The notes under the pieces were generated by a model. That model searched no databases and had not been told where the DNA came from. It worked only from the letters and a program-made list of their open reading frames with translations. DNA of 64,000 bases from a virus (Duplodnaviria > Heunggongvirae > Uroviricota > Caudoviricetes). Shown piece by piece: positions 1,687 to 35,397 of this stretch (positions are counted from its first letter, which is position 1; every line of letters starts with the position of its first letter). The position numbers and the translations under genes are program-made. The stretch is taken from the IMG/VR virus record IMGVR_UViG_3300025392_000640, positions 37,214-101,213 of that record. One strand, written 5' to 3'.

Positions 1687-2049
1687 CTATTTTGATTTCT
1701 TATAAGCCCTCTTAACTAACTTCTCATTCTCTCGGGCCTGTATTTCATAGGGATTATTCTTATACCCATATTTCAATTGATAGTGGTTATACCAACGAAA
1801 TGTTTGTTGTGCATGTGTCCATTCGTGCAATAAAGTTTTTTGGACTGATATCATTCGTTTACATTGTGACAAATTAATCCAAATAATTCCTTCCCAATCC
1901 CAATGTCCAGCTGATTCATTATTTATATCCCAATAAAATGCTATCCCAGTGCATTTACTTTCTCCTAATTTTTCGTGAGCCCAATTCCACAATTTATTAC
2001 AATCGAACTTCATACCTCTTTTGTTTGTTACTCTCATAAATATATACAA
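1687..2049 (-). CDS. ImmA/IrrE-like (DUF955, HExxH) small metallopeptidase-domain protein
   Basis: HEWTH motif followed by PYEIQARENE (E-x-E-A-x signature). Confidence 0.55.
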   Translation of the reverse strand: MYIFMRVTNKRGMKFDCNKLWNWAHEKLGESKCTGIAFYWDINNESAGHWDWEGIIWINLSQCKRMISVQKTLLHEWTHAQQTFRWYNHYQLKYGYKNNPYEIQARENEKLVKRAYKKSK

Positions 2050-2063
2050 TTGTTTTTACTATA

Positions 2064-2096
2064 CAAAGATACAAAAAATATCCGAGCTCACCAAAT
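2064..2096 (-). promoter_or_regulatory. Bacteroidetes-type promoter (-7 TAnnTTTG / -33 TTTG) for 1687..2049
   Basis: caaagatacaaaa...accaaat on + strand, i.e. TTTGGT-N-TTTTGTATCTTTG on the coding strand. Confidence 0.55.
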
Positions 2097-2489
2097 CTAA
2101 TCCCCATAAGGGTTGCATCGATTAGAGGATATCTAACGTGGCACACGCTTTCATTGAATATTCTCTAACGTAATGGGGGCTTAGGTTGCATGGCTTCTAA
2201 ATCTATCAAAATATATACAGAAAAATTTTGCCGTCTAACAAAGAATCCTTATATGCCTGCTTTCCTATCTAATATCTTTTGTCCTAAGTCTATCAATATT
2301 AAGAAAGTGTATAAATGTGGTAGAAAGTGTGTAAAAGTGGGAACGTGATGGACATCCATTTTTTAACCTCTATTCCTATCAATATTCACTACCCTATTGG
2401 ACCGGCTTGAATAAGGGGTCTTTTTGGAGTGAATAAACATCCGTGTAAAAATATTGTAAGTGGCTTGTTAGGATACCTCTATAAGGGAT

Positions 2490-2535
2490 TCTAAGGAGCA
2501 TTAAAAAGGAGTGCGGACCGAACCCACACTCCCAT
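2490..2535 (-). terminator. Rho-independent terminator downstream of 2557..2799
   Basis: Minus-strand hairpin GGAGTGTGGGTTCGGTCCGCACTCC followed by TTTTT. Confidence 0.6.
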
Positions 2536-2556
2536 TCATTTCACCATCCCAGCTCC

Positions 2557-2799
2557 TTAAACGGATTGGATTTCTTTTGTATCGAAGTTATAAATCCAAT
2601 GCCCTACGGGTTCGGTTTGTACATCATCCATAATAAAAAACTCGTATTCCGGCTCGGGGTTAAAGATTCCGTTTTGATGATATGAAGGGTATCCCCATTC
2701 TACTAACTTAGGATGTATTGTATTCCTTATAGCATCTACATCTCTAAAATTTGTAGGGAAACTATCTAAGATTCCTTTTAAGTTTTCATTTGTTATCAT
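2557..2799 (-). CDS. hypothetical protein
   Basis: 80-aa ORF. Confidence 0.45.
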   Translation of the reverse strand: MITNENLKGILDSFPTNFRDVDAIRNTIHPKLVEWGYPSYHQNGIFNPEPEYEFFIMDDVQTEPVGHWIYNFDTKEIQSV

Positions 2800-3396
2800 A
2801 TACTTTTATTTTTGTTTTGTGTTATCCTTATCTATCTTATAGTATATCCATACCTTACCCACTATATAAAGTATTAGTACTATACATGCCATTCCAAAAT
2901 CCCATAGTAGGTTAGTCCTTTCCATTGAATCCGTTTTTATTATTCCATTCCTTTTGTATCCTCTTATCCTTTATATATCCTATTAGGTTCTTTACTACCT
3001 TATATACGATAGATAGGCTGAATACTCCCATACATACTATTACTACTATACCTATTCCCTTATACATTTAGCTGATTTTAATTCCTTTTAGTTTTTCTAT
3101 TATCTTTTGTATTATGAGTGTCCAACTTCGTTTTGATTCCGTTGGATGGACTACTTCGGTGAACGATTTGATATATTTTGACATCTTTGTATTCGTTTTA
3201 GAATTACCCTATCATTTTATCTTTTTGTTCCTTTCTTTTTTGTATCCATTCCCTAACCCATATACTAATTGCGTATCCGCTTCCTATAAAAAATATACAA
3301 GCCCATCCCATTGGCTCATTCATAAAAAACGTAGTTACATCCTTCAATTCCATTTTATAAACTATTTCGTTTTGTTGCTTTAGCGTAGAAATGAAA

Positions 3397-3594
3397 TTAT
3401 AGTGAATTTCGTTTCGTTATACTTGCTACCTTATATATCCCCTCTATTTTTCCTAACATAACTCTCCAATCCTCTATTATAACCTCTACATTACCCGATT
3501 GTGTGATATGAGCTTGATGAAATTGTTCTCTTAACTCTTTCACCGTCTTATATTCACCACTTTTAATCAATTCCTTTATTTCCTCTTTATTCAT
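3397..3594 (-). CDS. hypothetical protein
   Basis: 65-aa ORF. Confidence 0.4.
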   Translation of the reverse strand: MNKEEIKELIKSGEYKTVKELREQFHQAHITQSGNVEVIIEDWRVMLGKIEGIYKVASITKRNSL

Positions 3595-3869
3595 ACCAAA
3601 CCTTTTTACTTTAATAGCTGTTTAGGCTGGCTGTAACTCAAGCCACCATTGGATTAGCTCGTTATGAGTGGCTATTTTCTACATAATAAATACTATCAAG
3701 AAAAAATTCCCCTTCGACCCGATTGAACGATTGAGGATATAATACAAGGCTGAGGATATTATTTATATTATTTATTATCTTTGTTGTCCGAGCTTATACC
3801 TATTATAGCCAATATACATATTATTAGGTATATCCACTCGCATACCATTGTTAATACTTTCATACTATA

Positions 3870-5477
3870 TTATTTATATATTTCATCTAAGCTTTCCAAA
3901 ATATTATCTTTATACTTATCCAAAAAATCATCACAATTATCATAATGCCATTCATTCAATTGATATCTTAATATTCTATCATGCAATGCACCATTATCCG
4001 AAAAATCCATCGGCATTAAATTTTTATAGTAATTCAATCTATAAATGTCATCCTCTGTCTCTGCGTATATTTTTGGTATTATGTGTTGTAATGCCCACTT
4101 ACCCTTACCATGCCCATGATTATCCCAAGTCATCCAAGGTTCAAACATACTTTCAATATAATCCCTAAATTCATTCCATTCAATCCCTAATATATCCTTT
4201 GTTCTTTTTGTTTTTGGATTTCCCTTCAATGCCGAATGTACATACGTTTTAACCAATGCGTGCAATTTAACCATTGGATTTGTATGATAATTTAATTTAC
4301 TTTGTATTCTACCTGCTTCGTAATATATATCCCTTCTATATGTTAAAGCACATTCAATACAAATGTATGCACTTCTAAAATCATTCTCATGTTGCTCTGT
4401 CTTACACTTTCTACACCATTTGTGATTTTCTTTTGTTGGATATGGGCATATATTAGCAGACATGTATTCAAAGTAACTTATAGTATCTAATTTTATTTTT
4501 AGCTCTTCTGTCAAATATATACTACCCGGTCCATTTCGTAACCAATTATACTCATATGCCACCGGAGTTCCCGTCCAATTATTATAATTTTTGTAATCAG
4601 TACTTTCAACAAAGTCCGAAACCAATTTTACACGTTTCAACCATAAAGATTCTTTATCTAATTGTTTTTGCTTTTCTATTTTTTTTAATTCTAATTCCTT
4701 TTGTATCTTTTTTTCCGTTTCTAATTTAATATACCTACATTGTGTACACTCTTGCTCTTTTAATAAAGATGCCACCTTTCTTTTTAGTATATGTCCATTC
4801 GTACACTCATACTCTATTTTTAAACAATTTTCAGTATTATAATATTTTCTAATTATTTTTTTAATGTATGGTAGTTTTTCAACATCAATTAATTTTTGAG
4901 TATCCGTTTCAGCTTTTTTGTTTTTAATTGTATTAATATGTTCTTCTAATGATAACATCCAGTTTGGTCTACCACAATATTTTAAAATCCAATGTCTTGT
5001 TTTTTTGTATTGTTTTTTATTCAAATCCAATTTGTATAACTCATCTAAGGATGAAACTTCGTTTATAAGAACTTTATAATATTCAATCATTTCATTATGA
5101 ATTGACTCTTTTATCTTATTTTTATTTGAAATATATTCAGCTCTTTTTACAGCTCTTCTTTTTAATAGGTTTGTATGAGCACATTTATCTGAACAAAATT
5201 GTCTACCTTTTGAATTTGGATTTCCACACTCTTTACAATTTGGATTTTTTCTAGCCTTTGATGATTTTTTTGCTTTATTTAATTCTAATTGTTTTTCATG
5301 TTTACATTTATCACAAAATTTTCTAGTGCCAACAAACGCAGGGTCAGTTATTATTCTACCATTTTCCCATATCAAAGTTGCTGTTAGTTTTTCTTTACAT
5401 CTTTGACATTCTACATAAGCCCTATCCCCTACCTTTAATACGGGATGTGTTATTACTTTGTAACTTTGATTTGTCAT
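3870..5477 (-). CDS. Cysteine-rich multi-zinc-ribbon protein, function unknown (possible nucleic-acid-binding or nuclease-associated)
   Basis: 535-aa ORF with many CxxC pairs (CQRCKEK, CDKCKHE, CKECGNP, CSDKCAH, CTQCRY, CRKCKTE, CIECAL); lies directly upstream of the paralog array. Confidence 0.6.
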   Translation of the reverse strand: MTNQSYKVITHPVLKVGDRAYVECQRCKEKLTATLIWENGRIITDPAFVGTRKFCDKCKHEKQLELNKAKKSSKARKNPNCKECGNPNSKGRQFCSDKCAHTNLLKRRAVKRAEYISNKNKIKESIHNEMIEYYKVLINEVSSLDELYKLDLNKKQYKKTRHWILKYCGRPNWMLSLEEHINTIKNKKAETDTQKLIDVEKLPYIKKIIRKYYNTENCLKIEYECTNGHILKRKVASLLKEQECTQCRYIKLETEKKIQKELELKKIEKQKQLDKESLWLKRVKLVSDFVESTDYKNYNNWTGTPVAYEYNWLRNGPGSIYLTEELKIKLDTISYFEYMSANICPYPTKENHKWCRKCKTEQHENDFRSAYICIECALTYRRDIYYEAGRIQSKLNYHTNPMVKLHALVKTYVHSALKGNPKTKRTKDILGIEWNEFRDYIESMFEPWMTWDNHGHGKGKWALQHIIPKIYAETEDDIYRLNYYKNLMPMDFSDNGALHDRILRYQLNEWHYDNCDDFLDKYKDNILESLDEIYK

Positions 5478-5770
5478 ACAATTACATATTTTTCTTTTAT
5501 ATAAATTAATTGGTCTCTCATTTTATCCAATGTATCAATTGTTTTAATCCTTACAAATTCTGTCATTGCTCCTTTTTTATAACCTATAAACATTCGATAT
5601 AAAGGATACCTATTATGTATATTGTTTACTACCTGCCTATCTAATTCTATATTACTATTGTCCGATAACCAAATTGAATAAGCATCACCTATTTCAGCTA
5701 TTCCAATAACCGTCAGGCCATCCTTTAATACCAATCCTTCCAGCTTCTTATAGTTTTGTATTGTTAGCAT
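5474..5770 (-). CDS. MLTI(K/E)NI-family paralog 1 (hypothetical)
   Basis: N-terminus MLTIQNYKKLEG; ~100 aa; member of tandem array. Confidence 0.6.
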   Translation of the reverse strand: MLTIQNYKKLEGLVLKDGLTVIGIAEIGDAYSIWLSDNSNIELDRQVVNNIHNRYPLYRMFIGYKKGAMTEFVRIKTIDTLDKMRDQLIYIKEKYVIV

Positions 5771-6036
5771 TTCATTAAATATTTTATTCTATCCCTTACA
5801 ATATGTGGCGTTTTCAAATCTTTTAGGGTTAGGTAGTCCGATTTGTTATTTAATTTTAATCGATATTTCCCTTTAGCAGTTCCTATCCTATTCAATTGGG
5901 CTATTATTACATTTGAATTACTTATATTCTTTAAGTGAAAAAAATATACATCAGGTGTACCAATTACAAATTCGACACGATACCGCCTACCAACATATTT
6001 TTTATTAATCTTTTGTATGTTCTCTATTATGAGCAT
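5764..6036 (-). CDS. MLTI(K/E)NI-family paralog 2
   Basis: MLIIENIQKINKK. Confidence 0.55.
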   Translation of the reverse strand: MLIIENIQKINKKYVGRRYRVEFVIGTPDVYFFHLKNISNSNVIIAQLNRIGTAKGKYRLKLNNKSDYLTLKDLKTPHIVRDRIKYLMKC

Positions 6037-6341
6037 ATCATTCCCGTTTGTATATGTAATTCTAATATAAAATTCTTTAATGTCAAATTTGATAACTTTA
6101 CATAAACATCTTGTTGCAGGTTTTCTGATGTCATTACATATCCCCTTCTATTCAATAAAGCCCTATGTAATTTATATACAATAACATCCTTTATACTTGC
6201 CACATTGTTTTCTAATAAAGGAAACACTCCAAATGTATAATGTAAACCTTCATTCTTAGCTATACCAATTATGAATTTTTGTCCACTACTTAATTTGAAC
6301 TCTTGTCCTTCTATATTTGTAAAGTTTTTTATTGTTAGCAT
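6027..6341 (-). CDS. MLTI(K/E)NI-family paralog 3
   Basis: MLTIKNFTNIEGQ. Confidence 0.6.
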   Translation of the reverse strand: MLTIKNFTNIEGQEFKLSSGQKFIIGIAKNEGLHYTFGVFPLLENNVASIKDVIVYKLHRALLNRRGYVMTSENLQQDVYVKLSNLTLKNFILELHIQTGMICS

Positions 6342-6343
6342 AA

Positions 6344-6664
6344 TTATTCAATTGACATTACTCTTTCAATACAATATATAAAAGTGTTCTTATCTTTTAT
6401 TTGCTCATAACTTAATAACATACATTTTCTATCAGTATCCTCATCCCACAATATATACCCATCATAGCCAGATGCAAACCTAGTTTTAAATCTATTCAAT
6501 ACTAATCGAATATCGCTATGTGTTTTATTTACATGTCTTATATGTAAATGATATTGCTCGTTACCCTGTTGAGTCCACATCCATATATTATATACATAAT
6601 AGTTTCCTGTTGGTATTGTTAATCTTTGATTGATTAATGTATGTGTATTTTCTATTGTTAGCAT
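6344..6664 (-). CDS. MLTI(K/E)NI-family paralog 4
   Basis: Track ORF 6344..6676 begins MHYNMLTIEN; start adjusted to the conserved MLTIENTHTLINQ. Confidence 0.55.
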   Translation of the reverse strand: MLTIENTHTLINQRLTIPTGNYYVYNIWMWTQQGNEQYHLHIRHVNKTHSDIRLVLNRFKTRFASGYDGYILWDEDTDRKCMLLSYEQIKDKNTFIYCIERVMSIE

Positions 6665-6665
6665 A

Positions 6666-6977
6666 TTATAGTGCATTTAAGTACATTTGTAATATTTCCA
6701 TAAACTCAATTGGATTTTTCATTGCGGTTTTATATAAAAATGTAGATTTGCTTCCAAATTTTCTTAATTGATATAGTGTAGTTTCAGGTGCTATGTTATC
6801 GAATGGTGCTTTCTTTCTAGTAAGTAAAACTATAATTGGAGCATGTACTGTCCCAATATCTTTAATTACTATTCTATATTCGTTTGGTGATGTCAAAACA
6901 TTCCCTATAACAAAAGTATATCCTTTTATTGTTATAGCTTTATGTATTAGTATTTCTATGTTTTGTATTGTTAGCAT
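6666..6977 (-). CDS. MLTI(K/E)NI-family paralog 5
   Basis: MLTIQNIEILIHK. Confidence 0.6.
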   Translation of the reverse strand: MLTIQNIEILIHKAITIKGYTFVIGNVLTSPNEYRIVIKDIGTVHAPIIVLLTRKKAPFDNIAPETTLYQLRKFGSKSTFLYKTAMKNPIEFMEILQMYLNAL

Positions 6978-7146
6978 ATATTAGTTTTTCCAATCACCAC
7001 TCCTTAATAGGTTTGTTATATAATCCATTGATTGTAGCGTTGTCAAAAATACAGGAGCTGGATATTCCTTGCCTTTGTATATTACTTTTGTTGGCTGCCA
7101 TACTAAACTACCATTATCTAATTCCAATTTATTCATATCATTTGTT

Positions 7147-7449
7147 TTATCCACATACTGCCTCTAACCAATATAAAGTACTACCAATACTCCTTAACTC
7201 TTCTGTGGATACATACCTTGCAGTTTGTGATGTATGTAATTTATAGTAATCTTTGTTTTCTACATTTCCACTATTTTTTGGGGTATCAATAATTCTGTCC
7301 AAATATATTGTTCTAAACATACTTCCGTGTTTTAAATAAAATTGATATTGCTTCCCACCATAATCAGTAGTTCCTATAATTTTCCAATCAAGTCTTTTTA
7401 TAGTTACTACTTGCCCTTCTATATTTTTTATGTTTTCTATTGTTAGCAT
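7147..7449 (-). CDS. MLTI(K/E)NI-family paralog 6
   Basis: MLTIENIKNIEGQ. Confidence 0.6.
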   Translation of the reverse strand: MLTIENIKNIEGQVVTIKRLDWKIIGTTDYGGKQYQFYLKHGSMFRTIYLDRIIDTPKNSGNVENKDYYKLHTSQTARYVSTEELRSIGSTLYWLEAVCG

Positions 7450-7769
7450 CCTTCAATTACTCTTAACATTGGTCCAATTAATGATTTCGGTTCTTTTAAA
7501 TGATTTATGTCTATTAATCTACTCTTATTAGTTATTATGTTTTTCAATTCGTATATGTGCATATCATCCCATTTAGTAGCATGTGTTCTACTCAAATTGA
7601 TTACAGCTTCCCTCAATAATCCGCCGGCAGGATGTGCTTCAATACATCTAAATACAAATTGATACAAATCACTAGCCGTTTGTATATTACTTAATTCCCA
7701 TTTTTCACCAGCTACTCTTAATGATTTTGCTAATGGACTTATATTATTTATGTTTTCTATTGTTAGCAT
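7443..7769 (-). CDS. MLTI(K/E)NI-family paralog 7
   Basis: MLTIENINNISPL. Confidence 0.6.
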   Translation of the reverse strand: MLTIENINNISPLAKSLRVAGEKWELSNIQTASDLYQFVFRCIEAHPAGGLLREAVINLSRTHATKWDDMHIYELKNIITNKSRLIDINHLKEPKSLIGPMLRVIEGC

Positions 7770-7770
7770 A

Positions 7771-11503: not shown

Positions 11504-11699
11504 ATGCTAATCCCAATAATTCAGTTTGAAGTTCTTGAAAATGCTTTTGTCTTTCAACTTCAGCTTTGAATTTATCCGGCGTTAATTCACTCAACTCAAC
11601 AATATCAAAATGCTGTGTTGGTATTGTAAACACTTGGTATCCACTATTTGTTTTACGAATAGTAATTCCATCCTCAATCCATTCTTTAAGATTTTCCAT
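11448..11699 (-). CDS. hypothetical protein
   Basis: 83-aa ORF. Confidence 0.4.
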   Translation of the reverse strand: MENLKEWIEDGITIRKTNSGYQVFTIPTQHFDIVELSELTPDKFKAEVERQKHFQELQTELLGLAFGKRVEEGLFDDLFEKMD

Positions 11700-13173
11700 A
11701 CTTTTGTTTTATTCTTTTTAAGAAATCAATTTCATCAATAAGTTTATCGTGTTTTTCATTTAATACATCTTCCATATTAGAATGCAAATCCAAAATAATA
11801 GAATTATCTTTCATAGAATCATAGGATTTTATAAATAAATTTTCATCTAAAATACCGTTACCATATCCAACGAGTCTCCAACCTGATGTAGAAAATACAC
11901 TTTCTTTTTTTCTATTAAAATTTAAACTTTCTTTTAAACCACTAATAGTACTAATTAGTTTTTTACTCATATATTTTTCATCACGATATCTATTCCAAAA
12001 TTCTGTATCGGTTCTTTTTGTAATGTAGTGATATTGTAAAAAATCAACAATATCATCATTCAGTTCTCCCAATGCCCAATTGTATTGACCCATATTATAA
12101 GGGTCTTTAAAATCAATATCAAATTTAGTTAATACTAATAATCCAATAATTACCATACCAATAGCAGTTGCTTCCAATGGTTCAACAAATCCGGTACTCA
12201 ATCCAACACCAATACAATTATTAATCCAATTGCTTTTATATCTACCAGGTTCAAAAGATATGGTTCGATTGCATTCAATTTCATGTCCTAATAAATTCTC
12301 AACTTCTTTTTTAGCTTCATCCGAATTTATATAATTGTTATCAAACACATAACCACATCCCCATCTACTTTGTAAAGGTATTTGCCATAACCAACCATAT
12401 TTCATAGCTATAGCCTTTGTGTATGTTGCAATATCAGTTTTGGATTGAGGTAATTGAAATGGTAATGCAGAATTAACTGTTAATCTATCTTTATATGATA
12501 TCCATTCTGTATTATATAATTTACCAATAATTAATCTTTTGAATCCGCTACAATCAAATACGAAATGGATATTTTCTACTTTTGTTTCATTTTCTAGCTC
12601 TATTGTTTTAATATCACCAAATCTATTTTGTACAAAATTAGTAATCACCCCTTCAATTCTTTTTACACCTCTACTTTCTGCAATTTTTTTAAAATAACTT
12701 GCTACTAAGTGGGCATCAAAATGAAATGAAAAATTGACCATTTGAGTATTATTTAATGAAATAGCAGATTTATTGTTATATGCCATATATTTAGATGCAA
12801 TCTTATCATTTAAATCATATCCATTTTTCATCAAAAACCCCCAATATTCACTATCACATATAGGTACATTATCTGGATTAGTTGAAAAGAAATCGTGAAT
12901 ATATTTTTTACCGTTACCATCCCAATTTTCAAAACTAACTCCTAATTTATGTGTTGCATTTGTTTCAACCATAAATTCATTATAATCTATTTTAACAAAT
13001 TGTAAAAAGTCCATCAATCTAGGAATACTACCTTCACCAGCACCCAATATACCAATATCTTCACTTTCAATTAAAGTTATATCAGCGCTACCATCATTAT
13101 ATAAATGCTGTGCCCATAATGCTGACATCCATCCAGCTGTTCCACCACCTACTATAACAATTTGTTTTTTCAT
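11686..13173 (-). CDS. Flavin-dependent (tryptophan-type) halogenase family protein
   Basis: N-terminal FAD site IVIVGGGTAGWMSA and the halogenase signature GWLWQIPL (WxWxIP). Confidence 0.8.
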   Translation of the reverse strand: MKKQIVIVGGGTAGWMSALWAQHLYNDGSADITLIESEDIGILGAGEGSIPRLMDFLQFVKIDYNEFMVETNATHKLGVSFENWDGNGKKYIHDFFSTNPDNVPICDSEYWGFLMKNGYDLNDKIASKYMAYNNKSAISLNNTQMVNFSFHFDAHLVASYFKKIAESRGVKRIEGVITNFVQNRFGDIKTIELENETKVENIHFVFDCSGFKRLIIGKLYNTEWISYKDRLTVNSALPFQLPQSKTDIATYTKAIAMKYGWLWQIPLQSRWGCGYVFDNNYINSDEAKKEVENLLGHEIECNRTISFEPGRYKSNWINNCIGVGLSTGFVEPLEATAIGMVIIGLLVLTKFDIDFKDPYNMGQYNWALGELNDDIVDFLQYHYITKRTDTEFWNRYRDEKYMSKKLISTISGLKESLNFNRKKESVFSTSGWRLVGYGNGILDENLFIKSYDSMKDNSIILDLHSNMEDVLNEKHDKLIDEIDFLKRIKQKYGKS

Positions 13174-18046: not shown

Positions 18047-19093
18047 TTAGTTATCAATATCTTTTTTAAATGGTTTGCTCCACTTTGGTTTAATCATTTT
18101 CCAAATAGTATCTTCGTATGATTTACCATCCCACATTGAGAACAATATAGAACGATATTCATTATCTTTGATTGCTAATGCAAATTCTTTTTTATCACCA
18201 TTTGATTCACCTTTATAATATTCAAAATCAATAGAGCTTCTGAATTTAATATTTTCAAAATGTGCTTTCAATTCCAATACAGTCATTCTAACCCAATTAT
18301 CAAACTCATCCGGTACTCTATCTAAGAACTCATTTAAGTTTCCATCGGTTCTCAATAATTCCCAAATATCAGTAGTTGAAAAGTTAGTTAATATTCTATG
18401 TAAACGAACATACTCATCACCTTTGATTTTCATTCTCATTCCTCTTTTGAAACGAACAACAAATCCTTCGGCATCATTTGAAATTATTCCTTTTAAAGTT
18501 TTGAAATCAGTTACTCCATCGTATTTTTTAACTACTTCAAATCCTTCACTTTCCATATTTTCAATACTACCTTCAATTCCAATTTCATTATTGTAAACTG
18601 CTAATACAACTAATTTCTCAGCTCCACCATAATCAACAACAATTCTATTTTCAGGGTATATGATTTCAAATAAGTAAGTGTAACCTGGTATCATTCCATA
18701 CTTAGTATTTTCTTTACTCAATAACTCTTTACCTTTGATAGCTTGTTCGGATGTGAAAGAACCACGTGTTGCTATATGCCACTCATCATTATAGAAAAAG
18801 CATATACCCAAGCTACCATCCATTTTTTCAAATACTTCAAATGACTGATTTGGTATTGATTCGGGTGACAATTCCTCATAGTTAAAGAATTTTGGAAATG
18901 GTTTAGCAATTAAATTACCTTCGTTATCTAAAACTAATCCCCTACATTCTAAAGTAATCGGGTCCCACAATTTTTCGTACTGAACACCTCTGCTATAATT
19001 GTATATAGATAAAGGTAAAGTTGGGTGGTCTTGTTTAATCACCCAACCTTTCTCTACATACTGCTTAAGTAATTCAAATTTATCGTATTTCAC
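18047..19093 (-). CDS. RNA ligase (Rnl1/T4 RnlA-like nucleotidyltransferase)
   Basis: Motif I KMDGSL, motif IV EGFVVRF, motif V MKIKG; 348 aa. Confidence 0.75.
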   Translation of the reverse strand: MKYDKFELLKQYVEKGWVIKQDHPTLPLSIYNYSRGVQYEKLWDPITLECRGLVLDNEGNLIAKPFPKFFNYEELSPESIPNQSFEVFEKMDGSLGICFFYNDEWHIATRGSFTSEQAIKGKELLSKENTKYGMIPGYTYLFEIIYPENRIVVDYGGAEKLVVLAVYNNEIGIEGSIENMESEGFEVVKKYDGVTDFKTLKGIISNDAEGFVVRFKRGMRMKIKGDEYVRLHRILTNFSTTDIWELLRTDGNLNEFLDRVPDEFDNWVRMTVLELKAHFENIKFRSSIDFEYYKGESNGDKKEFALAIKDNEYRSILFSMWDGKSYEDTIWKMIKPKWSKPFKKDIDN

Positions 19094-19782: not shown

Positions 19783-20436
19783 TTATTTATAGTTTTCAAC
19801 AATTTCGTGATGGTCTTTAACGAACAATGATTTTACAGGTCTATTTCTCATTATATGCAACACTTCGCTTAAACCAATTGGATATAACATATTACCATCC
19901 ACACCAACATCCATCATTTTACCTTCTTGTATTCTGATGTTAGAATTGAAGTGAACATGTCCATGCAAATGGATAGCACCTTTAGCCATATTATTCCAAC
20001 TTGCTATTGGAAAGTGCATTAATACAAAGTTAGCTTCACCCATCAATGGAGTTCCAACATTCCACTTTACATTCAATTCAACATATTTGTTTACTGAACT
20101 AAAAAGTGATTGGCAATTATCTCTATTGTTTTCAATGTGATGGTCGTGATTACCAGTTACGATATGTACATTCTTACATATAATTTGGTCTCTAAACTTT
20201 TGTATTTGTTCAAAGCCACCAAACGACCAATCCCCTAAATGAATTAAGATATCATCTTGCTTTACAACTTCATTAATGTTACCAACTAAATGTGAGTTCA
20301 TATACTCTAATGATTTAAACTCCCTAATTGTTGTGGGGTTATTCCATTTTGTTGTTGAACTACAAATGTTAGCATGATTATAATGCGTATCTGATGTGAA
20401 CCATAACTTCTGTCCTTTATTTAATATCAATTTCAT
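19783..20436 (-). CDS. Calcineurin-like metallophosphoesterase (putative 2',3'-phosphatase of repair cassette)
   Basis: DTHYNH, LGDWSFGG, GNHD, HGHVH metallophosphatase motifs. Confidence 0.8.
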   Translation of the reverse strand: MKLILNKGQKLWFTSDTHYNHANICSSTTKWNNPTTIREFKSLEYMNSHLVGNINEVVKQDDILIHLGDWSFGGFEQIQKFRDQIICKNVHIVTGNHDHHIENNRDNCQSLFSSVNKYVELNVKWNVGTPLMGEANFVLMHFPIASWNNMAKGAIHLHGHVHFNSNIRIQEGKMMDVGVDGNMLYPIGLSEVLHIMRNRPVKSLFVKDHHEIVENYK

Positions 20437-25269: not shown

Positions 25270-25734
25270 TTATTTTTTGTATCGTTTTTCTAATCTATCG
25301 TATGCTATTGCAGTTTCGTATGTGTGTGGTATATTAACAGCAGAACAACTCATAGGTTTACCACAATTTTTGTAGTAGTTATTAATATAACCCATCATAT
25401 TAGCTGCTCCAATTGGATTAGCTGAATGTACATAGACTTGTGGTAACTCAATACCCTTATCAATACTTTCATTAACCAACCACTTAGCGCAATCATACCC
25501 AGTTTTTTCACTAATGTTATCATAATCAATTTTATAATTATCTTTAACATTATTAAAATACTCACGCATAGCAGTATCACCTAAATCGTGGTCTAATGAA
25601 ATCACTTCGTAATTTTCTAAACCATTCAATCGGATATGCGATACAAATTCATCATAGTTTTTAACTAACTTCCACCTATCATCATTTGGTATTCTCACAT
25701 CATCCAAATACAACCACAATTTTTTGTTCTCCAT
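25270..25734 (-). CDS. hypothetical protein
   Basis: 154-aa ORF. Confidence 0.5.
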   Translation of the reverse strand: MENKKLWLYLDDVRIPNDDRWKLVKNYDEFVSHIRLNGLENYEVISLDHDLGDTAMREYFNNVKDNYKIDYDNISEKTGYDCAKWLVNESIDKGIELPQVYVHSANPIGAANMMGYINNYYKNCGKPMSCSAVNIPHTYETAIAYDRLEKRYKK

Positions 25735-26525
25735 TATATAAAATTTAATTCTCTAGTTTCAAAATCATAATCAAAGGTTATTGGATTATTAACAGCCTCA
25801 TATCTTAAGTTACAGCTACTACCATTAAAGGTATAGATATCACCCCATTCATCTTTATAAGGTATAGTTCCGTATCCGTATCCTTCGTGGATATGGCCTC
25901 CAAAATGTAAGTGAGGTTTTACTTCATGCAATCTATGATACAAATCTTGACAACCTACATTTTGATTTGTATTTTGTGCTCTATCATTGTAACCATAAAT
26001 CGGAGTATGTGTGATAACGATATCAGTATCCATTGGTATTTTATTCCAACATTCTGCTATATCATGTCCTCTATCTTTATTGTAAGCCCAACCACGACCG
26101 AATGATGGTGAATAGGGCGAACCCCATATCTTTATGTTATCAAACTCAATAGTACTATTCTCTAAATAAAATGTATTGTTATCCAATCCACTTAACATAT
26201 CAGTCAACCATTGTGGTCTACCTTCTGCTAAATCTAATGGGTCATACATCCTACCGTCAAAGTGTGCCAACTTATCAGCTAACATTGTTTCACTTTGAAA
26301 ACTAATGTCGTGATTTCCAGCTATGAATATTTTGTATTGATAATCCTGCTTACTGAACCATTTTATAAATTGCTCTATCTCATGCTTCCTACCCAAAGAT
26401 GAAATATCGCCACTATGGATTAATATATCTCCACCTGGCAATTTACCATTAAGCTGATTGTGTTTATTGTGGGTATCACTTATACCCGTAATCCTAAATT
26501 TCATAACCTTTATTAATTCATTCAC
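25734..26525 (-). CDS. Calcineurin-like metallophosphoesterase
   Basis: GISDTHNKH, IHSGDIS, AGNHD, GGHIHEGYG motifs. Confidence 0.8.
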   Translation of the reverse strand: MNELIKVMKFRITGISDTHNKHNQLNGKLPGGDILIHSGDISSLGRKHEIEQFIKWFSKQDYQYKIFIAGNHDISFQSETMLADKLAHFDGRMYDPLDLAEGRPQWLTDMLSGLDNNTFYLENSTIEFDNIKIWGSPYSPSFGRGWAYNKDRGHDIAECWNKIPMDTDIVITHTPIYGYNDRAQNTNQNVGCQDLYHRLHEVKPHLHFGGHIHEGYGYGTIPYKDEWGDIYTFNGSSCNLRYEAVNNPITFDYDFETRELNFI

Positions 26526-28326: not shown

Positions 28327-28668
28327 TTACTTTTTATTTTTTATTTCTATAATATGTTTACAATCACGCCCTCTACCAAAACCATGCGCCGGACAACTAC
28401 AAGTCCACACACCATCATCATTAACTACTTTGTATGAATTACCTTTACTACCTTTCACTTTATACTCTACCTTAGTATTAGTTTTAGCTTCCCAAGGTTT
28501 AGGCATACCATACTCAATTCTATCCCACATACTTTCCAACTCAGTCCATCCATAATATCTATCAACCTCAACCCAACCACTACTATCTTTACCAGTACAC
28601 ACAATCCACTTTTTGCCTGTAATTGGTGATTCAAAACAAAGTGGTGGTAAATGCGATTTTATTCTCAT
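28327..28668 (-). CDS. SWIM-type zinc-finger protein
   Basis: C-terminal WTCSCPAHGFGRGRDCKHI (CxC...CxH). Confidence 0.5.
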   Translation of the reverse strand: MRIKSHLPPLCFESPITGKKWIVCTGKDSSGWVEVDRYYGWTELESMWDRIEYGMPKPWEAKTNTKVEYKVKGSKGNSYKVVNDDGVWTCSCPAHGFGRGRDCKHIIEIKNKK

Positions 28669-28888: not shown

Positions 28889-28900
28889 AACTTAGTTTTA

Positions 28901-29251: not shown

Positions 29252-29275
29252 AATTCTTAATTTTTATTATACCCA

Positions 29276-29306: not shown

Positions 29307-29495
29307 TTTAAGGTAAAAATCTTTAAAAATTCTTTATTGATTATCAACACGTTAGCCGGATGTCCCAAAAACCCCACGTAACTCGTTGATAATCAATTTA
29401 ATACATATTAGCCACTTTTTAGCCCTTTTTAGGGGGGTCTAATGGGTTTTAAGGTCAATACCTAACCCAACCCGAAAGGACTTAAAAAAAGGGGT

Positions 29496-29858
29496 CTATT
29501 CGAACCCCTTTCTATCATTCCAAACTTCATTTAGTTTATCCAATATTAGCTTATTATAACCTTCCAATCCAAAATACCCTAACACATATAAAATATCGTT
29601 ATCTGTATATTTTAATTGTAAACTATCATTTATATTTTCGATATCCAATTCCTCTACAAATTCACTAAATTCTTTTGATTTATAATAATCTTCTACCAGC
29701 TTTTCGATATCCTCAATTTCAGCTTCGGTTGGTATATAGTTTTCATCCTCACCATACTTTGCCATTAGCTCAGTATATTCAAATGGGGATATACCAAACA
29801 TATCTTCCATTTCCTGTTCCGATAAATTGTTCAATAGTTTTTCTTTTATCTTACTCAT
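29496..29858 (-). CDS. acidic hypothetical protein
   Basis: 120-aa E/D-rich ORF. Confidence 0.45.
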   Translation of the reverse strand: MSKIKEKLLNNLSEQEMEDMFGISPFEYTELMAKYGEDENYIPTEAEIEDIEKLVEDYYKSKEFSEFVEELDIENINDSLQLKYTDNDILYVLGYFGLEGYNKLILDKLNEVWNDRKGFE

Positions 29859-29859
29859 A

Positions 29860-30471
29860 TTATATGTTTTCTTCTTTATAAAGTTTTTCCAATCTCTTAG
29901 GTAACTTATCGTAATTCATTCTAAAGTTAGCCGGCATTGCTGCTACTATTCTTTTATTAGTGTATGGAGTATTATTAGGTTTGCTCCACTTACGAGTTTG
30001 TTTCATCCAGTTATAGAATTGTAAGTAAGCATTAGCTCTCTTAGTGTATCTTTCAGTATCAATACTCAATCCCCACTCCTTAATCATTTTAACTGAACGC
30101 TTCTCATTATCCAATTCCAACCCAATGGATATTTCAAATGCTCTTTCTAATGTTTGAGGTCTTTTATACTTACCTTCCAACCACTCATCAATAACAGGTA
30201 TTGCTTTACCTGCTACTTTCCATAAATGAAATCCATCTTGCCATTGTGTAAGGTGACAATATTCATGTACTAATATTTCTAATCCATCTTCCTTAGCCAT
30301 TGAACAAGCTAAAATAGGTTGCTCACCATCATCAAAGTATCCACTACATCTAATAGTAGGTGATAACTTTACATACTTTACATTCTTAATATGATTCTTA
30401 ACTCCCAATCTTTTACATTCATCCTTTACGTGTTGAATAAATGCTAAATCATTTTTTGTGTACTTCTTCAT
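29860..30471 (-). CDS. putative HExxH zinc metallopeptidase-like protein
   Basis: ILVHEYCHLTQWQDG. Confidence 0.5.
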   Translation of the reverse strand: MKKYTKNDLAFIQHVKDECKRLGVKNHIKNVKYVKLSPTIRCSGYFDDGEQPILACSMAKEDGLEILVHEYCHLTQWQDGFHLWKVAGKAIPVIDEWLEGKYKRPQTLERAFEISIGLELDNEKRSVKMIKEWGLSIDTERYTKRANAYLQFYNWMKQTRKWSKPNNTPYTNKRIVAAMPANFRMNYDKLPKRLEKLYKEENI

Positions 30472-30492
30472 ACTTAATTTTTTGTTACTTTA

Positions 30493-30525
30493 CAAAGATA
30501 CGAAATTAATTCGAATCCACCAAAT
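30493..30525 (-). promoter_or_regulatory. Bacteroidetes-type promoter for 29860..30471
   Basis: caaagatacgaaattaattcgaatccaccaaat; 20-nt spacer between TTTG and TATCTTTG on the coding strand. Confidence 0.6.
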
Positions 30526-30526
30526 T

Positions 30527-30901
30527 TTATTTAAACTCAACACCATGCCTTTCTTTGAACTTATCCTCTACTAACTTAGCTGCTTTATTGTAACCATTTT
30601 TGATTAACATTAAACGAGCTAATGTATCGGCTTCCCTTTCATCATTCTCATTCTTTTCTTCACTATGTCCTAATTTAAAATGTGCTACCTCATGCGCTTC
30701 AATCCATTTTAGAACATCCTTACTTAGTTTTTGCTCACCATCAATCAATACAATATAATCAGTAGGGACCATAAACCCAAAACCAAATTTATCAAAGATA
30801 GGTTTAACTACATCATATCGGTAATCTTCCTTACCAATTATATTGACCAACACATCATCATCAAACTCACTTCTAAATTGTTTAGTTTTCATATTGTTCA
30901 A
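30527..30901 (-). CDS. ImmA/IrrE-family (DUF955) metallopeptidase-domain protein
   Basis: HEVAHFKLGH followed by EREADTLARLML. Confidence 0.6.
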   Translation of the reverse strand: MNNMKTKQFRSEFDDDVLVNIIGKEDYRYDVVKPIFDKFGFGFMVPTDYIVLIDGEQKLSKDVLKWIEAHEVAHFKLGHSEEKNENDEREADTLARLMLIKNGYNKAAKLVEDKFKERHGVEFK

Positions 30902-31601
30902 ATATCTTTTTATATTGTTTATTTAATGCTTTACAAACTCTTTTACTAACTCCTTTATTGAATCTACTATATTCCCAATTGGTACTTAAGTAAGCTTGTA
31001 TCTCATCAGGTATCACAGCGGCTGTATAACCCATATCCAATAAGTTACCTTCAAACTTTAAGTAATCCTGCCATTCAATAGTTTCAGTAATCTCATCCAC
31101 CAATGCTTTATACTCTTTGTTAGTTGCGTATAAACCATGACAAACTTCGTGGTCAAAAGTAGTATCTTCCAATGATGGTGCTCCAATAATGTAAGCGTTC
31201 ATATTTCGTTTATTCTTTTTATTGAACATTTTACTTTCAATATTCCAAATAATATTCTTCATCACTTCATCATAAGGACTCTTCCAATTATCAGGCATTG
31301 AACGAACTCCATCATACATTTTCTTTGTATTCTTCTCACTACCTTCGTAGCACTCCCAAGCAGTTTTTAAAGGTATATTAAATCCACCCCAATCGTATGT
31401 ATAAGTAAACACATCACCATGCTCTCTACTATACCATTCAATATAGTCCCAAACATTAAAGTGCTTACCTCTAAAATCTTCGTTAGGTGATTCATAGAAC
31501 TCCTGTACTCTCATAAATAACATTGCTCTATGATAATGGTCTTTCACTATCACAGCGAATACATTCGGTCTAACTTCCTCTATCTTATAATCTACTTTCA
31601 T
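30882..31601 (-). CDS. hypothetical protein with HExxH motif
   Basis: FDHEVCHGLYATN; 239 aa. Confidence 0.45.
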   Translation of the reverse strand: MKVDYKIEEVRPNVFAVIVKDHYHRAMLFMRVQEFYESPNEDFRGKHFNVWDYIEWYSREHGDVFTYTYDWGGFNIPLKTAWECYEGSEKNTKKMYDGVRSMPDNWKSPYDEVMKNIIWNIESKMFNKKNKRNMNAYIIGAPSLEDTTFDHEVCHGLYATNKEYKALVDEITETIEWQDYLKFEGNLLDMGYTAAVIPDEIQAYLSTNWEYSRFNKGVSKRVCKALNKQYKKIFEQYEN

Positions 31602-31606
31602 TTGTT

Positions 31607-31822
31607 TTAATTTAAATATTCTTTTACTTCACGTATTAATACTACTATCATAATCCATATCCAAAATACAAATATCCCAATAATTGATATAGGTGGTATT
31701 AAAAATATAATTCTTGCCAATTTAGTATTAATCCAATACCAATCAGCGTCATCAAATAATGATTTCATACCCAATGCACAAATTGTGTTGAATATAAATG
31801 CGATTAAAAATATTCCTATCAT
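31607..31822 (-). CDS. small membrane protein
   Basis: 71 aa with two TM helices. Confidence 0.4.
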   Translation of the reverse strand: MIGIFLIAFIFNTICALGMKSLFDDADWYWINTKLARIIFLIPPISIIGIFVFWIWIMIVVLIREVKEYLN

Positions 31823-31833
31823 ATACTTTATTT

Positions 31834-32208
31834 TTAATACACAATGTGTATAGGTTCTTTAATCTTTACACGTCCACCATTCTTTTTACCCCAACCCTGA
31901 TTAGGGTCATCCTCACTTCGGGTTGTTGGTATATTGCCCTCAAAGTACTTCTCTAAGATAACAGCGATACCATTACTATCATCGTTATCAAACATAAGGT
32001 CACATACATCGTACCAATCCATTTTCCATTCAAAAGAATTTTCAAATGTAGAATCGGTGAACACTCTACCATATGAATTATAATGACCTCTCATTTCCTC
32101 AATTACTTTACCATTCTTTAATAGATATAATCTACATGCATCGCCATCAAACGAAGATGATGCAACTGGTAATCCACTCTCTTTACAAATAAAACTGAAA
32201 CATCCCAT
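31834..32208 (-). CDS. hypothetical protein
   Basis: 124-aa ORF. Confidence 0.45.
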   Translation of the reverse strand: MGCFSFICKESGLPVASSSFDGDACRLYLLKNGKVIEEMRGHYNSYGRVFTDSTFENSFEWKMDWYDVCDLMFDNDDSNGIAVILEKYFEGNIPTTRSEDDPNQGWGKKNGGRVKIKEPIHIVY

Positions 32209-32382
32209 AATTTTTTATTTTAATTTTTTGATTAATTCGTTTGCTGTTTTTGCTGATAAATAAATTGATTCATCACGTTTTCCACCAAAGAACGCAACTT
32301 GAGTATTTCTATCAATAGCGTACCATAACTTTTGGTATTCATTATACCATAACACATAATTTGTTAGCATGTTTTTTATTTT

Positions 32383-32619
32383 TTAATTTGTTACAAAATC
32401 ATATAAATCGTTTACTGAATAGATACCATCCTTACTACTCATAGTATCTATATCAGAAATTGTTTCAACATTACAACCTTCGTTTATCTCATCGTAGGTA
32501 CAATTGATATTACAACTACCTTCAACACAATACCAGCGTTTACCACTACGTGTTTCATATACTAAAATAGTACCTCTATTTCGAGTACCGTAAAATCCAT
32601 TTACTTCATACAAATTCAT
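32383..32619 (-). CDS. hypothetical Cys-containing small protein
   Basis: 78-aa ORF. Confidence 0.4.
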   Translation of the reverse strand: MNLYEVNGFYGTRNRGTILVYETRSGKRWYCVEGSCNINCTYDEINEGCNVETISDIDTMSSKDGIYSVNDLYDFVTN

Positions 32620-32640
32620 ATTCTTATTTTTTATTGTTTA

Positions 32641-33084
32641 TTAAATACCTTGCTCTCTACGAAGGTCATATTCTTCCTTATCGTATTCCGAATACTCAAC
32701 CACTTTCAAGTAAGGTTTGAAATCAGTTTCATAATAACCATTGAGGTTAGCTAAGTTAATCATTGAATTGATAAACGATTGACGAGCAAAAGTCATATCA
32801 GATGAACCAAACCCCTGGTCTTCCGGCCAATCAGAATAATCTTCTCTTAATTCATCCAATGCCTCATATACGGCATCTAAATAAGTTATCACTCTACCAG
32901 TGTACTTACCCACAACTGGAAAAGCATTTTTAATAACATCGTAGCCCTCAATCAATGGAGCGGTTTCAAATACCCTAATTGGGTCAAACGGTAAACTCAT
33001 ATACTTAATTTTTATTTTTTTATTACAATTATTTATCACCCCATAATTTTTTACGAGCTTCTTCACTACGCAATTTTGCTTCAA
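32641..33084 (-). CDS. hypothetical protein
   Basis: 147-aa ORF. Confidence 0.45.
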   Translation of the reverse strand: MKQNCVVKKLVKNYGVINNCNKKIKIKYMSLPFDPIRVFETAPLIEGYDVIKNAFPVVGKYTGRVITYLDAVYEALDELREDYSDWPEDQGFGSSDMTFARQSFINSMINLANLNGYYETDFKPYLKVVEYSEYDKEEYDLRREQGI

Positions 33085-33742
33085 TTTCTTCAGCTTCCGA
33101 ATCTTTAACTACGCAATTAGATGGATTAGCTACTTTAATTACATACTTAGCATTTGAATAATCTTTACCTTCTTTAGCTAAGTACCTTTGTGTTTTACGA
33201 TTCTTATAAGGTATTCTCAAATTCTTTAAAATATGTGAGAAACTATTTGAACCCGTAATACTTCTATAATAAGATTGTATTTCACTATAACTTGCCGCAC
33301 CTTTCTTATCAACAAAATCTAAGATAGCTTGAGAAGCATAGCCTGGCGTTTTTAACTTTCTTAAGTGGATACGATAATCATCAATAACAGAAGTTTCGTT
33401 TTGTTTCAATGTACAATAATCATCAAACTTTTTTAATTCTTCCGATGCTTTTATTACCCCAATACCATAATTCATAGCATCTTCATCAGCTTCTTCGTTA
33501 CTTACATAATGCGAACTAACTTCTATTTCCTCATCAATAGCTTCTAAACCAATTCTATAATTCAATTCACACTGCAACTTATCTAACAAAGATACATTCA
33601 ATTCCTTATCACACATCATACCTTTAGAGGCGGTAATACCTAACGAATAAATGAGTTCGTTAATCTCTTTAATACTTAAATTCATATTCTTAATTTTTAT
33701 TTTAAATGTTATACCATAATTTATGTACATACTCATAACCAA
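33029..33742 (-). CDS. hypothetical protein
   Basis: 237-aa ORF. Confidence 0.45.
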   Translation of the reverse strand: MVMSMYINYGITFKIKIKNMNLSIKEINELIYSLGITASKGMMCDKELNVSLLDKLQCELNYRIGLEAIDEEIEVSSHYVSNEEADEDAMNYGIGVIKASEELKKFDDYCTLKQNETSVIDDYRIHLRKLKTPGYASQAILDFVDKKGAASYSEIQSYYRSITGSNSFSHILKNLRIPYKNRKTQRYLAKEGKDYSNAKYVIKVANPSNCVVKDSEAEEIEAKLRSEEARKKLWGDK

Positions 33743-34064
33743 ATCCTAACTCATCAGCCAATTTTTGAAACAGGCGCTCTCTTATTATACTATCATACAC
33801 ATAAAGGTATTCATATACATCCCTACCAACAAACAATTCATTCAATAAACCTACAAATGTAGCTTTTGGGTTAATACCTTCACCCATATCATCGGTTGGG
33901 TAATTACTAATGTACCATTCTTTAACAGTTATCATATTACTTATTTTTATTTTTATTGTAAACAAATTGAAACACTTCAGCGAATCCACCACAACCACAC
34001 CAATCATATTTATAAAAAGTCTTAGTACCAAAAGTAGGTGATGAAATTGTTTCGGCGTTTCCAC
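33702..34064 (-). CDS. hypothetical protein
   Basis: 120 aa; overlaps neighbours, start uncertain. Confidence 0.35.
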   Translation of the reverse strand: METPKQFHHLLLVLRLFINMIGVVVVDSLKCFNLFTIKIKISNMITVKEWYISNYPTDDMGEGINPKATFVGLLNELFVGRDVYEYLYVYDSIIRERLFQKLADELGFGYEYVHKLWYNI

Positions 34065-34230
34065 CTAACTTAGATTCATTCATATCTTTTACCTTAAGGA
34101 AATTCTTATAGGCTGATAACATAGTTTTACATTTATACTTACTAGTCAACATTAAGTAAGCGATAGATGGATACTTTTTAAGGAAATTGGTACAATTTTC
34201 CTCATTCACCGAAAACACTAATTTATTCAT
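33937..34230 (-). CDS. hypothetical protein
   Basis: 97 aa; overlaps 33702..34064 in another frame, only one likely real over the overlap. Confidence 0.35.
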   Translation of the reverse strand: MNKLVFSVNEENCTNFLKKYPSIAYLMLTSKYKCKTMLSAYKNFLKVKDMNESKLGGNAETISSPTFGTKTFYKYDWCGCGGFAEVFQFVYNKNKNK

Positions 34231-34249
34231 ATTTCTTAATTTTATATAG

Positions 34250-34281
34250 TAAAACTACGAATAATCCCCGAAACTGCCAAA
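34250..34281 (-). promoter_or_regulatory. Variant promoter with upstream palindromic elements at 34301-34320 and 34341-34365
   Basis: aaaactacgaataatccccgaaactgccaaat, then aaaattctttattgagaatcaatgagttac. Confidence 0.5.
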
Positions 34282-34475
34282 TTTGGCACAAAAATTCTTT
34301 ATTGAGAATCAATGAGTTACATATATGTTTTTTTATAATATCCTAACGTGTTGATTATCAATAAAGAATTTTATCCATTTTAAGGGTATTTTTAACCGAT
34401 TTTAGGGTGTCTACCTTATTTTGGGGTAAATACCCATTTTAGGGATAAAAAGGGGTAAAATACCCCTTATTTTCA

Positions 34476-34802
34476 CTAATCAAACCATTGAGAACGATTA
34501 GTCTTAACATGCTTTACATATAGTTCGGGTTCTTTTACCTTAATACCTTTGGCAGCCTCCTTAATCTTTTGAGCTTTAGTAATTTCACCTTCCTTACCCA
34601 GCTTTTTGGCATCCCTCAATTGTTTAGTAGTCAGTTTACCACCATTGGCAACTGATGCGAATTTCTTAACGTGATATTGGTCTAATGGAACTGCTCCTTT
34701 CTTTAGGTATTCAGCTTTACTATCCAAATACTCAAAGAACTCATCTTCCGATAATCCTTTTAATTGTTCATCCGTTAATTCGTTTTGTGGATTATATTTC
34801 AT
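34476..34802 (-). CDS. hypothetical protein
   Basis: 108-aa ORF. Confidence 0.45.
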   Translation of the reverse strand: MKYNPQNELTDEQLKGLSEDEFFEYLDSKAEYLKKGAVPLDQYHVKKFASVANGGKLTTKQLRDAKKLGKEGEITKAQKIKEAAKGIKVKEPELYVKHVKTNRSQWFD

Positions 34803-34804
34803 AT

Positions 34805-35029
34805 CTATTCATTTACAATTTCTGCTTCAGGTATTTCTATTACTAAATAGTGTGTATCTTCAGGTCCTCTTAATAACTTCTCACAATGATAAAAGTCACA
34901 TAAGTCCTGCGCTGATACTTTATTTGAGAATAGGGCTTGAACTACTGAACTATCAGCTTTGAACTTTCGTTTCACTATCCAAACCGAACCATTAGCGTTA
35001 ATAACTTCTATTTGCATACTTTTTTCCAA
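34805..35029 (-). CDS. hypothetical protein
   Basis: 74-aa ORF. Confidence 0.4.
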   Translation of the reverse strand: MEKSMQIEVINANGSVWIVKRKFKADSSVVQALFSNKVSAQDLCDFYHCEKLLRGPEDTHYLVIEIPEAEIVNE

Positions 35030-35397
35030 TTTTGTTCCTCTACTTCATAAGCTTCTATTTCGTAGGGATGTGTTTTATATGTGTGTCCCATATCATAATA
35101 TCTCTGCATCCAAGCGGGCGATTGTAAATAGTGAGAGTATTCATGCACTATTGTTCGGGCTAAATCTTCTTTACCTTTAATATTTTTAGTATAAATAATA
35201 ATTTCGTTTTCTGCAAAATCATACTCACCTCTCCACAGGTTATCATAGCCTGTGGATTCGGGTGAATACTCTATTGATAGGTAAGGGGTGTGCTTCTGAT
35301 ACTTACTCTCTCCTAATAACTCTATAGTCTTCTCTAAAAATTGATATGCCTGTTTCTCTATTCTATCTCTAATCATTTTTTTATTTTTTTCTTTCAT
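35008..35397 (-). CDS. ImmA/IrrE-like (HExxH...ExEA) metallopeptidase-domain protein
   Basis: IVHEYSHYLQ and PYEIEAYEVEE. Confidence 0.55.
   Translation of the reverse strand: MKEKNKKMIRDRIEKQAYQFLEKTIELLGESKYQKHTPYLSIEYSPESTGYDNLWRGEYDFAENEIIIYTKNIKGKEDLARTIVHEYSHYLQSPAWMQRYYDMGHTYKTHPYEIEAYEVEEQNWKKVCK

Follow-up and report, generated by a model that had tools for sequence, protein, structure and literature searches.

Small zincin peptidases in multiple copies are already known from jumbo phages. Some of these phages encode one to three copies of SprT-like zincin peptidases and others encode ArdC-like ones; their patchy distribution and variable copy number have been taken as an argument for cleavage of host proteins (Iyer et al., 2021; PMC7824862). 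Proteases of the COG2856/M78 group are in practice defined by the pairing of their gene with that of an XRE-family repressor (PMC6868357), and Lit, the phage-exclusion protease of e14, cleaves EF-Tu once the Gol peptide of T4 appears (PMC3014915). Zincins that resemble anthrax lethal factor (ATLF-like) combine HExxH with a catalytic Tyr about seven residues before the Glu ligand on a helix of the C-domain, and their alpha/beta N-domain has an edge strand (PMC12828418). Here, we compare with these systems five genes (A to E) that encode HExxH motifs in a 64,000-nucleotide stretch of viral DNA (Caudoviricetes; IMG/VR record IMGVR_UViG_3300025392_000640, positions 37,214 to 101,213), referred to below as the window. 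A sequence-only reading of the window had described them as a family of at least five ImmA/IrrE-like paralogs. We consider it probable that they are five small, soluble metalloenzymes of the zincin type belonging to four families, that they act as endopeptidases on host proteins and that their genes travel together; of this, the binding of metal, the peptidase activity and most of all the targets are what we infer. Compared by description with the jumbo-phage set (PMC7824862), the new elements are that the genes fall into four families, one with a mini M78/U49-like member that lacks a repressor and one (D) a Pfam orphan spread over domains of life, and that genes of different families adjoin each other.

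Five HExxH genes in four sequence families

All five open reading frames (ORFs) are present on the minus strand, and their motifs translate as the sequence-only reading had quoted them. Gene A (1687–2049) encodes HEWTH at 1813–1827 and a predicted third zinc ligand, Glu102 in PYEIQA, at 1744–1746; its start is probably the ATG at 2013, which is preceded by AAAGAGG and gives the 108-amino-acid (aa) product of the gene call on the record. Gene B (29860–30471; 203 aa) encodes HEYCH at 30253–30267 and an invariant Glu119 (LELDxExR) at 30115–30117. Gene C (30527–30901) encodes HEVAH at 30680–30694, an invariant His79 and Glu88 (DExEAD) at 30638–30640; its probable start, the ATG at 30892, yields a 121-aa product that matches the contig's gene call and the homologues. 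Gene D (30882–31601; 239 aa) encodes HEVCH at 31137–31151, Tyr192 and Asp199-Glu200 (DEIQAY, with Glu200 at 31002–31004). Gene E (35008–35397; 129 aa) encodes HEYSH at 35131–35145 and a predicted third ligand, Glu113, at 35059–35061. D, C and B lie next to one another in one block, with an 11-nt overlap between D and C. No signal peptides were found in the zincin proteins. Ten homologues checked for names were all listed as hypothetical protein or had no name.

The direct Pfam matches of these proteins were all sub-threshold, as would be expected if the motifs had arisen by chance in unrelated folds. However, the window contains five HExxH motifs, whereas shuffling the residues of its 149 minus-strand ORFs (50 aa or longer) gave a mean of 0.76, and five were reached in 0.15% of 2000 rounds (Poisson P 0.0011); ORFs of 40 aa or more contain no other HExxH on either strand. 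The Glu of the motif and its two His are invariant or nearly so among the homologues of each family, down to about 30% identity, and a downstream acidic residue is conserved in the families of all five candidates. A position of HExxH away from the metal-binding helix had been named beforehand as the sign of chance motifs; in the AlphaFold models of both D and E, the motif instead sits on a helix that follows a beta-strand, and the structural neighbours of E are zincins. The HExxH motifs are not chance, and the conservation and fold data together refute the opposite reading, to which we assign a negligible probability.

HExxH followed by a downstream Glu is a peptidase signature, whereas YbeY has three His and no motif Glu. 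All four families keep the complete HExxH with its catalytic Glu and the downstream Glu as invariant residues. It is unlikely, then, that some or all of the proteins are not peptidases but zincin-fold binders (anti-repressor-like or inhibitor-like) or non-peptide hydrolases comparable to YbeY-type RNases, and an invariant catalytic Glu would be superfluous in a protein that only binds.

By sequence comparison, the five genes form four families (A/E, B, C and D), and of the proposed paralogs only A and E are paralogous (33% identity over 96 aa). B is, at the level of profiles, a remote relative of A/E: hhalign gives a probability of 93% (E 3.5e-7) over 44 columns that span the strand and the HExxH helix, and the hidden Markov model (HMM) of the B family picks up E in the window at 7e-4. 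Profile comparisons of C and D with the other families and with each other gave probabilities of 2–15% and no relation. The alignment of D with A/E brings both motifs into register (HExxH and MGYT..P.EIQAY), which is no more than suggestive. Searching the window with the family HMMs revealed no further hidden paralog, and searching PDB sequences with the family alignments (A1–A5) revealed no credible relative; profile matches to YciF, ENaC, Nsp1 and rhinovirus VP1 were dismissed as chance. What survives of the earlier description is that all five are zincin-type candidates, with conserved HExxH and a downstream acidic residue; the single ImmA/IrrE family does not survive. HExxH followed by Glu is insufficient for an ImmA/IrrE label, and an over-specific label is thereby corrected.

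A and E both match phrog_16532, and A matches phrog_37302 and phrog_16532 at ~4e-6. Their alignment has invariant H, E, H, Q, W and P-Y-E-x-x-A, and the invariant positions after the motif are, in E numbering, Q92, W96, Y107, P111, Y112, E113, A116 and E120. The AlphaFold model of E is that of a minimal zincin fold, in which strand 65–69 precedes the HExxH helix (76–91, with H85, E86 and H89) and Glu113 lies on the next long helix (111–128); its similarity to solved zincins is significant. The PYE[IV][QE]A pattern of A/E recalls the ExEA[ND] pattern, but the model of E is nearer to other zincin families than to M78. In the SprT/Wss1/Spartan family, HExxH is followed by a third zinc-binding His. 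A/E instead have the invariant Glu of PYExxA and no conserved third His after the motif, and SprT-like Pfam matches stayed below cutoff (0.014 for E and 0.17 for B). Archaeal minigluzincins are related to the M48/M56 membrane proteases; these proteins (proabylysin and projannalysin), selecase and the SprT/Wss1/Spartan cores show no sequence relationship to A/E. A tblastn search with E returned only Sinorhizobium phage phiN3, at 3e-3. A cysteine switch via the conserved C-terminal 'ICK' of the E family was considered and discarded because its Cys is placed by the model at the far end of the Glu113 helix, from where it cannot reach the metal site intramolecularly.

For B, an exhaustive search gave 1591 cluster representatives as relatives at E<=1e-3. 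The invariant residues of this family are G44, H69, E70, H73, Q76 and E119, and D121, E123 and R125 are nearly invariant; after the motif, the conserved residues are Q76 and E119, with no third His of the SprT type. DUF6782 (PF20573, an uncharacterised putative metallopeptidase) is matched by 34 of 87 B relatives (best 5e-7), and B itself reaches 18.7 bits against a 27-bit cutoff, over profile positions 59–109 of 241. The likeness lies around the strand and the HExxH helix and covers about 50 of the 241 positions, and the two are probably related at the level of a superfamily. Literature searches on DUF6782, and on jumbo phages together with HExxH, returned nothing. Homologues of B occur in the jumbo phages XacN1, Xoo-sp13, CM1 and RAS14 and in the 642-kb record LR756502; the longer relatives include one GNAT fusion (P0194) and no recurrent domain fusion. 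A gene for a small SWIM zinc-finger protein (28327–28668; CSCPAH...CKH; Pfam SWIM 0.0028, sub-threshold) is kept near the B gene in the window and in the related loci L005 (773–1114), L006 and L007 (326–646).

Gene C between M78 and U49

The ImmA/DUF955 signature, which had been ascribed to A, C and E, holds for C, whose family has the M78-like pattern HExxHxxxxH...DExEAD; A, B, D and E gave no M78 signal. Among 34 sequences of the C family, H70, E71, H74, H79, E88, A91 and D92 are invariant. The direct Pfam scores of C were all sub-threshold (M48, 19.5 bits; U49, 17 bits with a cutoff of 23.9; M78, 14.5 bits with a cutoff of 22). The M78 signal of the homologues is not exclusive, as 26 of the 34 match U49, 25 match Peptidase_M78 (best 3e-6) and 16 match M48; several were named 'ImmA (M78 family)' by JGI. 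C matches the NCBIfam model of Lit at 1.4e-7 over ~50 core residues (model positions 163–215 of 309; 31 bits against a cutoff of 274) and the PADLOC model of Lit at 6e-5, and the contig's gene call also carries a precomputed U49 match. A tblastn search with C found nothing. Judged from these matches, C is a stripped-down catalytic core that stands between M78 and U49.

C shares with ImmA, IrrE and CapP (PF06114, COG2856) the HExxH, a His five residues past the second His of the motif and the ExEA[DN] helix, and like ImmA it is small, soluble and cytoplasmic. It differs from ImmA in scoring below the family cutoff, in having neither an adjacent XRE or helix-turn-helix (HTH) gene nor a sensor domain, in its smaller size and in a shorter loop between motif and Glu. 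Lit (PF10463, PRK09672) is the best named match of C and resembles it over the ~50-residue catalytic core; however, Lit has ~300 aa and is encoded by the host or a prophage, whereas C has 121 aa and is encoded by a phage.

The pattern of C (HExxHxxxxH...DExEADxxA), the M78 matches of its homologues, some of the JGI names and a weak alignment of HExxH between the C profile and CapP (7t5t; E 0.9) are what would be expected if C and the other genes encoded ImmA/IrrE (M78, COG2856) anti-repressor proteases, which on a signal would cut an XRE-type repressor of the phage, of a prophage or of a host defence operon. A search for partner HTH proteins, which had been proposed as a check, found none beside any of the five genes or among 136 window ORFs scanned. 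HTH families were absent from ten flanking ORFs, from the precomputed Pfam table (25–45 kb) and from 121 further ORFs (E<=1e-3; complete lists of 15 and 21 families), a negative that rests on Pfam and that a very divergent HTH could escape. As no HTH protein was detected, the pairing of ImmA with a repressor fails here. In its specific version of cutting the repressors of defence operons, the proposal also runs into the difficulty that such cleavage would turn the defences on. Anti-repressor proteases of this kind are thus very unlikely.

Linkage of the zincin genes and the D family

At the C-type loci found in IMG/VR (n = 22), an A/E-type gene abuts or overlaps C upstream in nine cases, and a D-type gene overlaps it downstream in three. 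The order is D-C-B in the window, C then B in L048, L005 and L006, and B then an A/E-type gene in L007. In related phages, the neighbours of C are other zincins: order and partner vary, but adjacency stays. Of 80 A/E loci, 71 have no other zincin within 6 kb. A conserved non-zincin partner was sought beside A, E, B and D, and none was found. The adjacency of the zincin genes exceeds random placement among more than 100 genes, by an informal judgement, and its persistence suggests a shared purpose or shared regulation.

D belongs to a family that has no Pfam model and no solved relative. Its invariant residues are those of HExxH, Tyr192, Asp199-Glu200 and an N-terminal block, RxQExYES...DWxGFNIP. 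The predicted fold is confident, although structural neighbours are weak: strand 137–141 is followed by helix 149–160, which bears H151, E152 and H155, and Glu200 lies on helix 194–207, an architecture that is, as modelled, compatible with a zincin. The layout of D in the model recalls the ATLF-like zincins (the Pro-Pro endopeptidases PPEP-1/2/3 and the ATLF-like domain of Certhrax): an edge strand closes its alpha/beta N-domain, the HExxH helix is located near residue 150, and the C-domain is helical and contains the Glu that would be the third ligand, ~40–45 residues past the motif and 7–8 residues after a Tyr. A fold search of BFVD with D gave a single significant match, an uncharacterised Megaviridae protein (E 3.5e-5); matches to 'large polyvalent protein' entries at E ~0.2 were weak and were not relied on.

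The D family is large and is found in hundreds of phage clusters with ~70% identity across them, which indicates strong constraint on the sequence. Homologues occur in XacN1, Xoo-sp13 and the 642-kb record LR756502. Those of XacN1 (AP018399.1, 306858–307406) and Xoo-sp13 (MN047793.1, 292339–292905) are annotated as 'ABC transporter ATP-binding protein', a label that is almost certainly wrong, as none of the 34 family members scanned gave an ABC or P-loop signal.

D is also found in cells. Approximately 27 of 35 genome loci lie in metagenome-assembled genomes (MAGs) of bacteria of the candidate phyla radiation (CPR) or DPANN archaea, an enrichment that may partly reflect the bias of the search pattern; others lie in Bacteriovoracaceae and Omnitrophota. 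L015, L016, L036 and L039 are among the loci outside phages. These lineages all depend on other cells. In three genomes of the Parcubacteria group (L030, 3435–6610; L042; L043), rpsP, a gene for a KH protein and trmD are followed by a D homologue that overlaps the stop of trmD; in L030, rpoB lies downstream of D, and the trmD product has a PDB match at 6e-44. Further loci carry SecA, 2-oxoglutarate dehydrogenase or RFC. These are real cellular contexts, and for D they weigh against a host protein as the target. Together with the strong conservation among phage clusters and the Megaviridae match, they would fit D being functionally separate, a housekeeping-type enzyme possibly of translation or protein maturation that CPR bacteria, DPANN archaea, giant viruses and jumbo phages share and that is merely co-located with the other zincin genes here. 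Conversely, the direct neighbour of D is a C-type gene both in the window and on three further viral contigs, and another HExxH ORF in L017; some of the supposed MAG contigs with D look viral (L012 and L017), and the neighbours of D are not kept beyond the three related Parcubacteria-group genomes. We consider a separate role for D somewhat unlikely.

The L017 locus is on a 110-kb contig that was binned as Cyclobacteriaceae and looks viral (HNH and HD genes). After its D homologue comes a 204-aa ORF (5905–6519) with the sequence IVHEFCHFLD, which is matched by none of the four family HMMs and possibly represents a fifth zincin family linked to D.

Genome setting and proposed function

The window is part of an uncultured jumbo phage. 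It has a GC content of ~30%, and nearly all of its genes are on the minus strand. Proteins identical to B, C, D and E are encoded on a metagenome contig in ENA (k141_120166; 82.7 kb), and relatives of the five genes were found on IMG/VR contigs of up to 288 kb. A search for near-identical DNA with 28–36 kb of the window found no match in 50,697 phage records. The related sequences appear to come from lake samples, such as the Lake Mendota bins.

An array of 25 tRNA genes (43594–50270; minus strand) covers 19 amino acids (no Val), with three genes for Met and three for Gly, and accounts for a local rise in GC at 43.6–50.3 kb. Genes related to RNA repair are present as well: a T4 Rnl1-type RNA ligase (18047–19093), a cREC_REC cyclic-phosphate receiver domain (25270–25734), a Metallophos phosphoesterase (25734–26525; a second Metallophos match in the window is in an unplaced ORF), an ORF at 19783–20436 that matches an annotated 'phosphoesterase' of XacN1, an AAA_33 kinase-like protein and a HAD_SAK_2 'Swiss Army Knife' RNA-repair domain. 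The RNA-repair set and the 25 tRNA genes look like a counter-measure against defences that cleave tRNA.

Two genes resemble tryptophan halogenases (11686–13173 and 39003–40514; Pfam Trp_halogenase, 2e-113 for one of them). The product of the second is ~32% identical to annotated tryptophan halogenases of cyanophages and of pelagiphage HTVC008M, and the gene adjoins genes for a methyltransferase, a WavE-like protein and a SET-domain protein. Auxiliary metabolic genes of the kind known from cyanophages and marine phages lie in 50–64 kb. Among the genes of this region are those for a SAM lyase (50432–51133), a ferredoxin-dependent bilin reductase (52628–53254), a Band 7/SPFH protein (60980–61831) and GTP cyclohydrolase I (62641–63267), and heme oxygenase, NifU, an IscA-type Fe-S assembly protein and ribosomal protein S21 are encoded there in unplaced ORFs. 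Two folding helpers are encoded within 1–28321, a GroES-type co-chaperonin (Cpn10, 2e-24) and a cyclophilin peptidyl-prolyl isomerase (5e-42); HSP10 has been noted in jumbo phage groups 2 and 3 (PMC7824862). A perfect 8-bp palindromic hairpin, AAGGGGTA-AAA-TACCCCTT, at 34450–34468 sits in a 245-nt gap between the ORFs 33937–34230 and 34476–34802, in a region with few intergenic gaps, and possibly acts as a terminator or in regulation. A scan of 28–36.5 kb for promoters and terminators gave the same counts as shuffled sequence.

Small accessory genes and metabolic genes surround the five zincin genes in the window, whose 64 kb yielded no structural genes. This setting bears on the proposal that the zincins process the phage's own proteins, whether in virion maturation, in the removal of scaffolds or propeptides or in the activation of enzymes, including a cascade in which a zincin activates its neighbour. 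The lack of a conserved non-zincin partner beside the genes also speaks against it, as does the presence of D in cellular genomes without virions, and we regard processing of phage proteins as improbable.

Most likely, as far as their sequences allow, A to E are cytoplasmic zinc endopeptidases. In the mechanism that we propose for them, one zinc would be held by the two His of HExxH and by a Glu of a later helix (Glu102 in A, Glu119 in B, Glu88 in C, Glu200 in D and Glu113 in E), and the Glu of the motif would serve as the general base. A peptide substrate would lie extended along the strand that precedes the HExxH helix, as fits endopeptidase action, and Tyr192 of D might stabilise the transition state as in Pro-Pro endopeptidases. 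Their purpose would be to cleave proteins of the host while it is taken over or its defences are countered, each family having a substrate of its own. Host proteins are ranked first as targets because of the inference drawn for the zincins of jumbo phages (PMC7824862); by this analogy they are our leading guess, and the cleavage of host regulators by phage zincins is plausible.

Much less is documented about phage-encoded proteases directed at host proteins than about nucleases and small-protein inhibitors. A single genome here offers four compact, soluble and easily expressed candidate zinc peptidases with clear predicted catalytic residues and with linkage in relatives; these residues and the gene linkage make a direct screen for substrates practical. 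Because Pfam lacks the D family, which is large and strongly conserved, assigning its function would annotate many genes at once. A broader reading, which we hold to be rather doubtful, is that D represents an undescribed zinc hydrolase family, which jumbo phages and a giant virus share with CPR bacteria, DPANN archaea and predatory bacteria, all of which live off other cells, and that the adjacency of the four families marks a 'protease cassette' acting jointly on host proteins, either as a cascade or on multiple targets. Such a cassette would be a previously unrecognised one.

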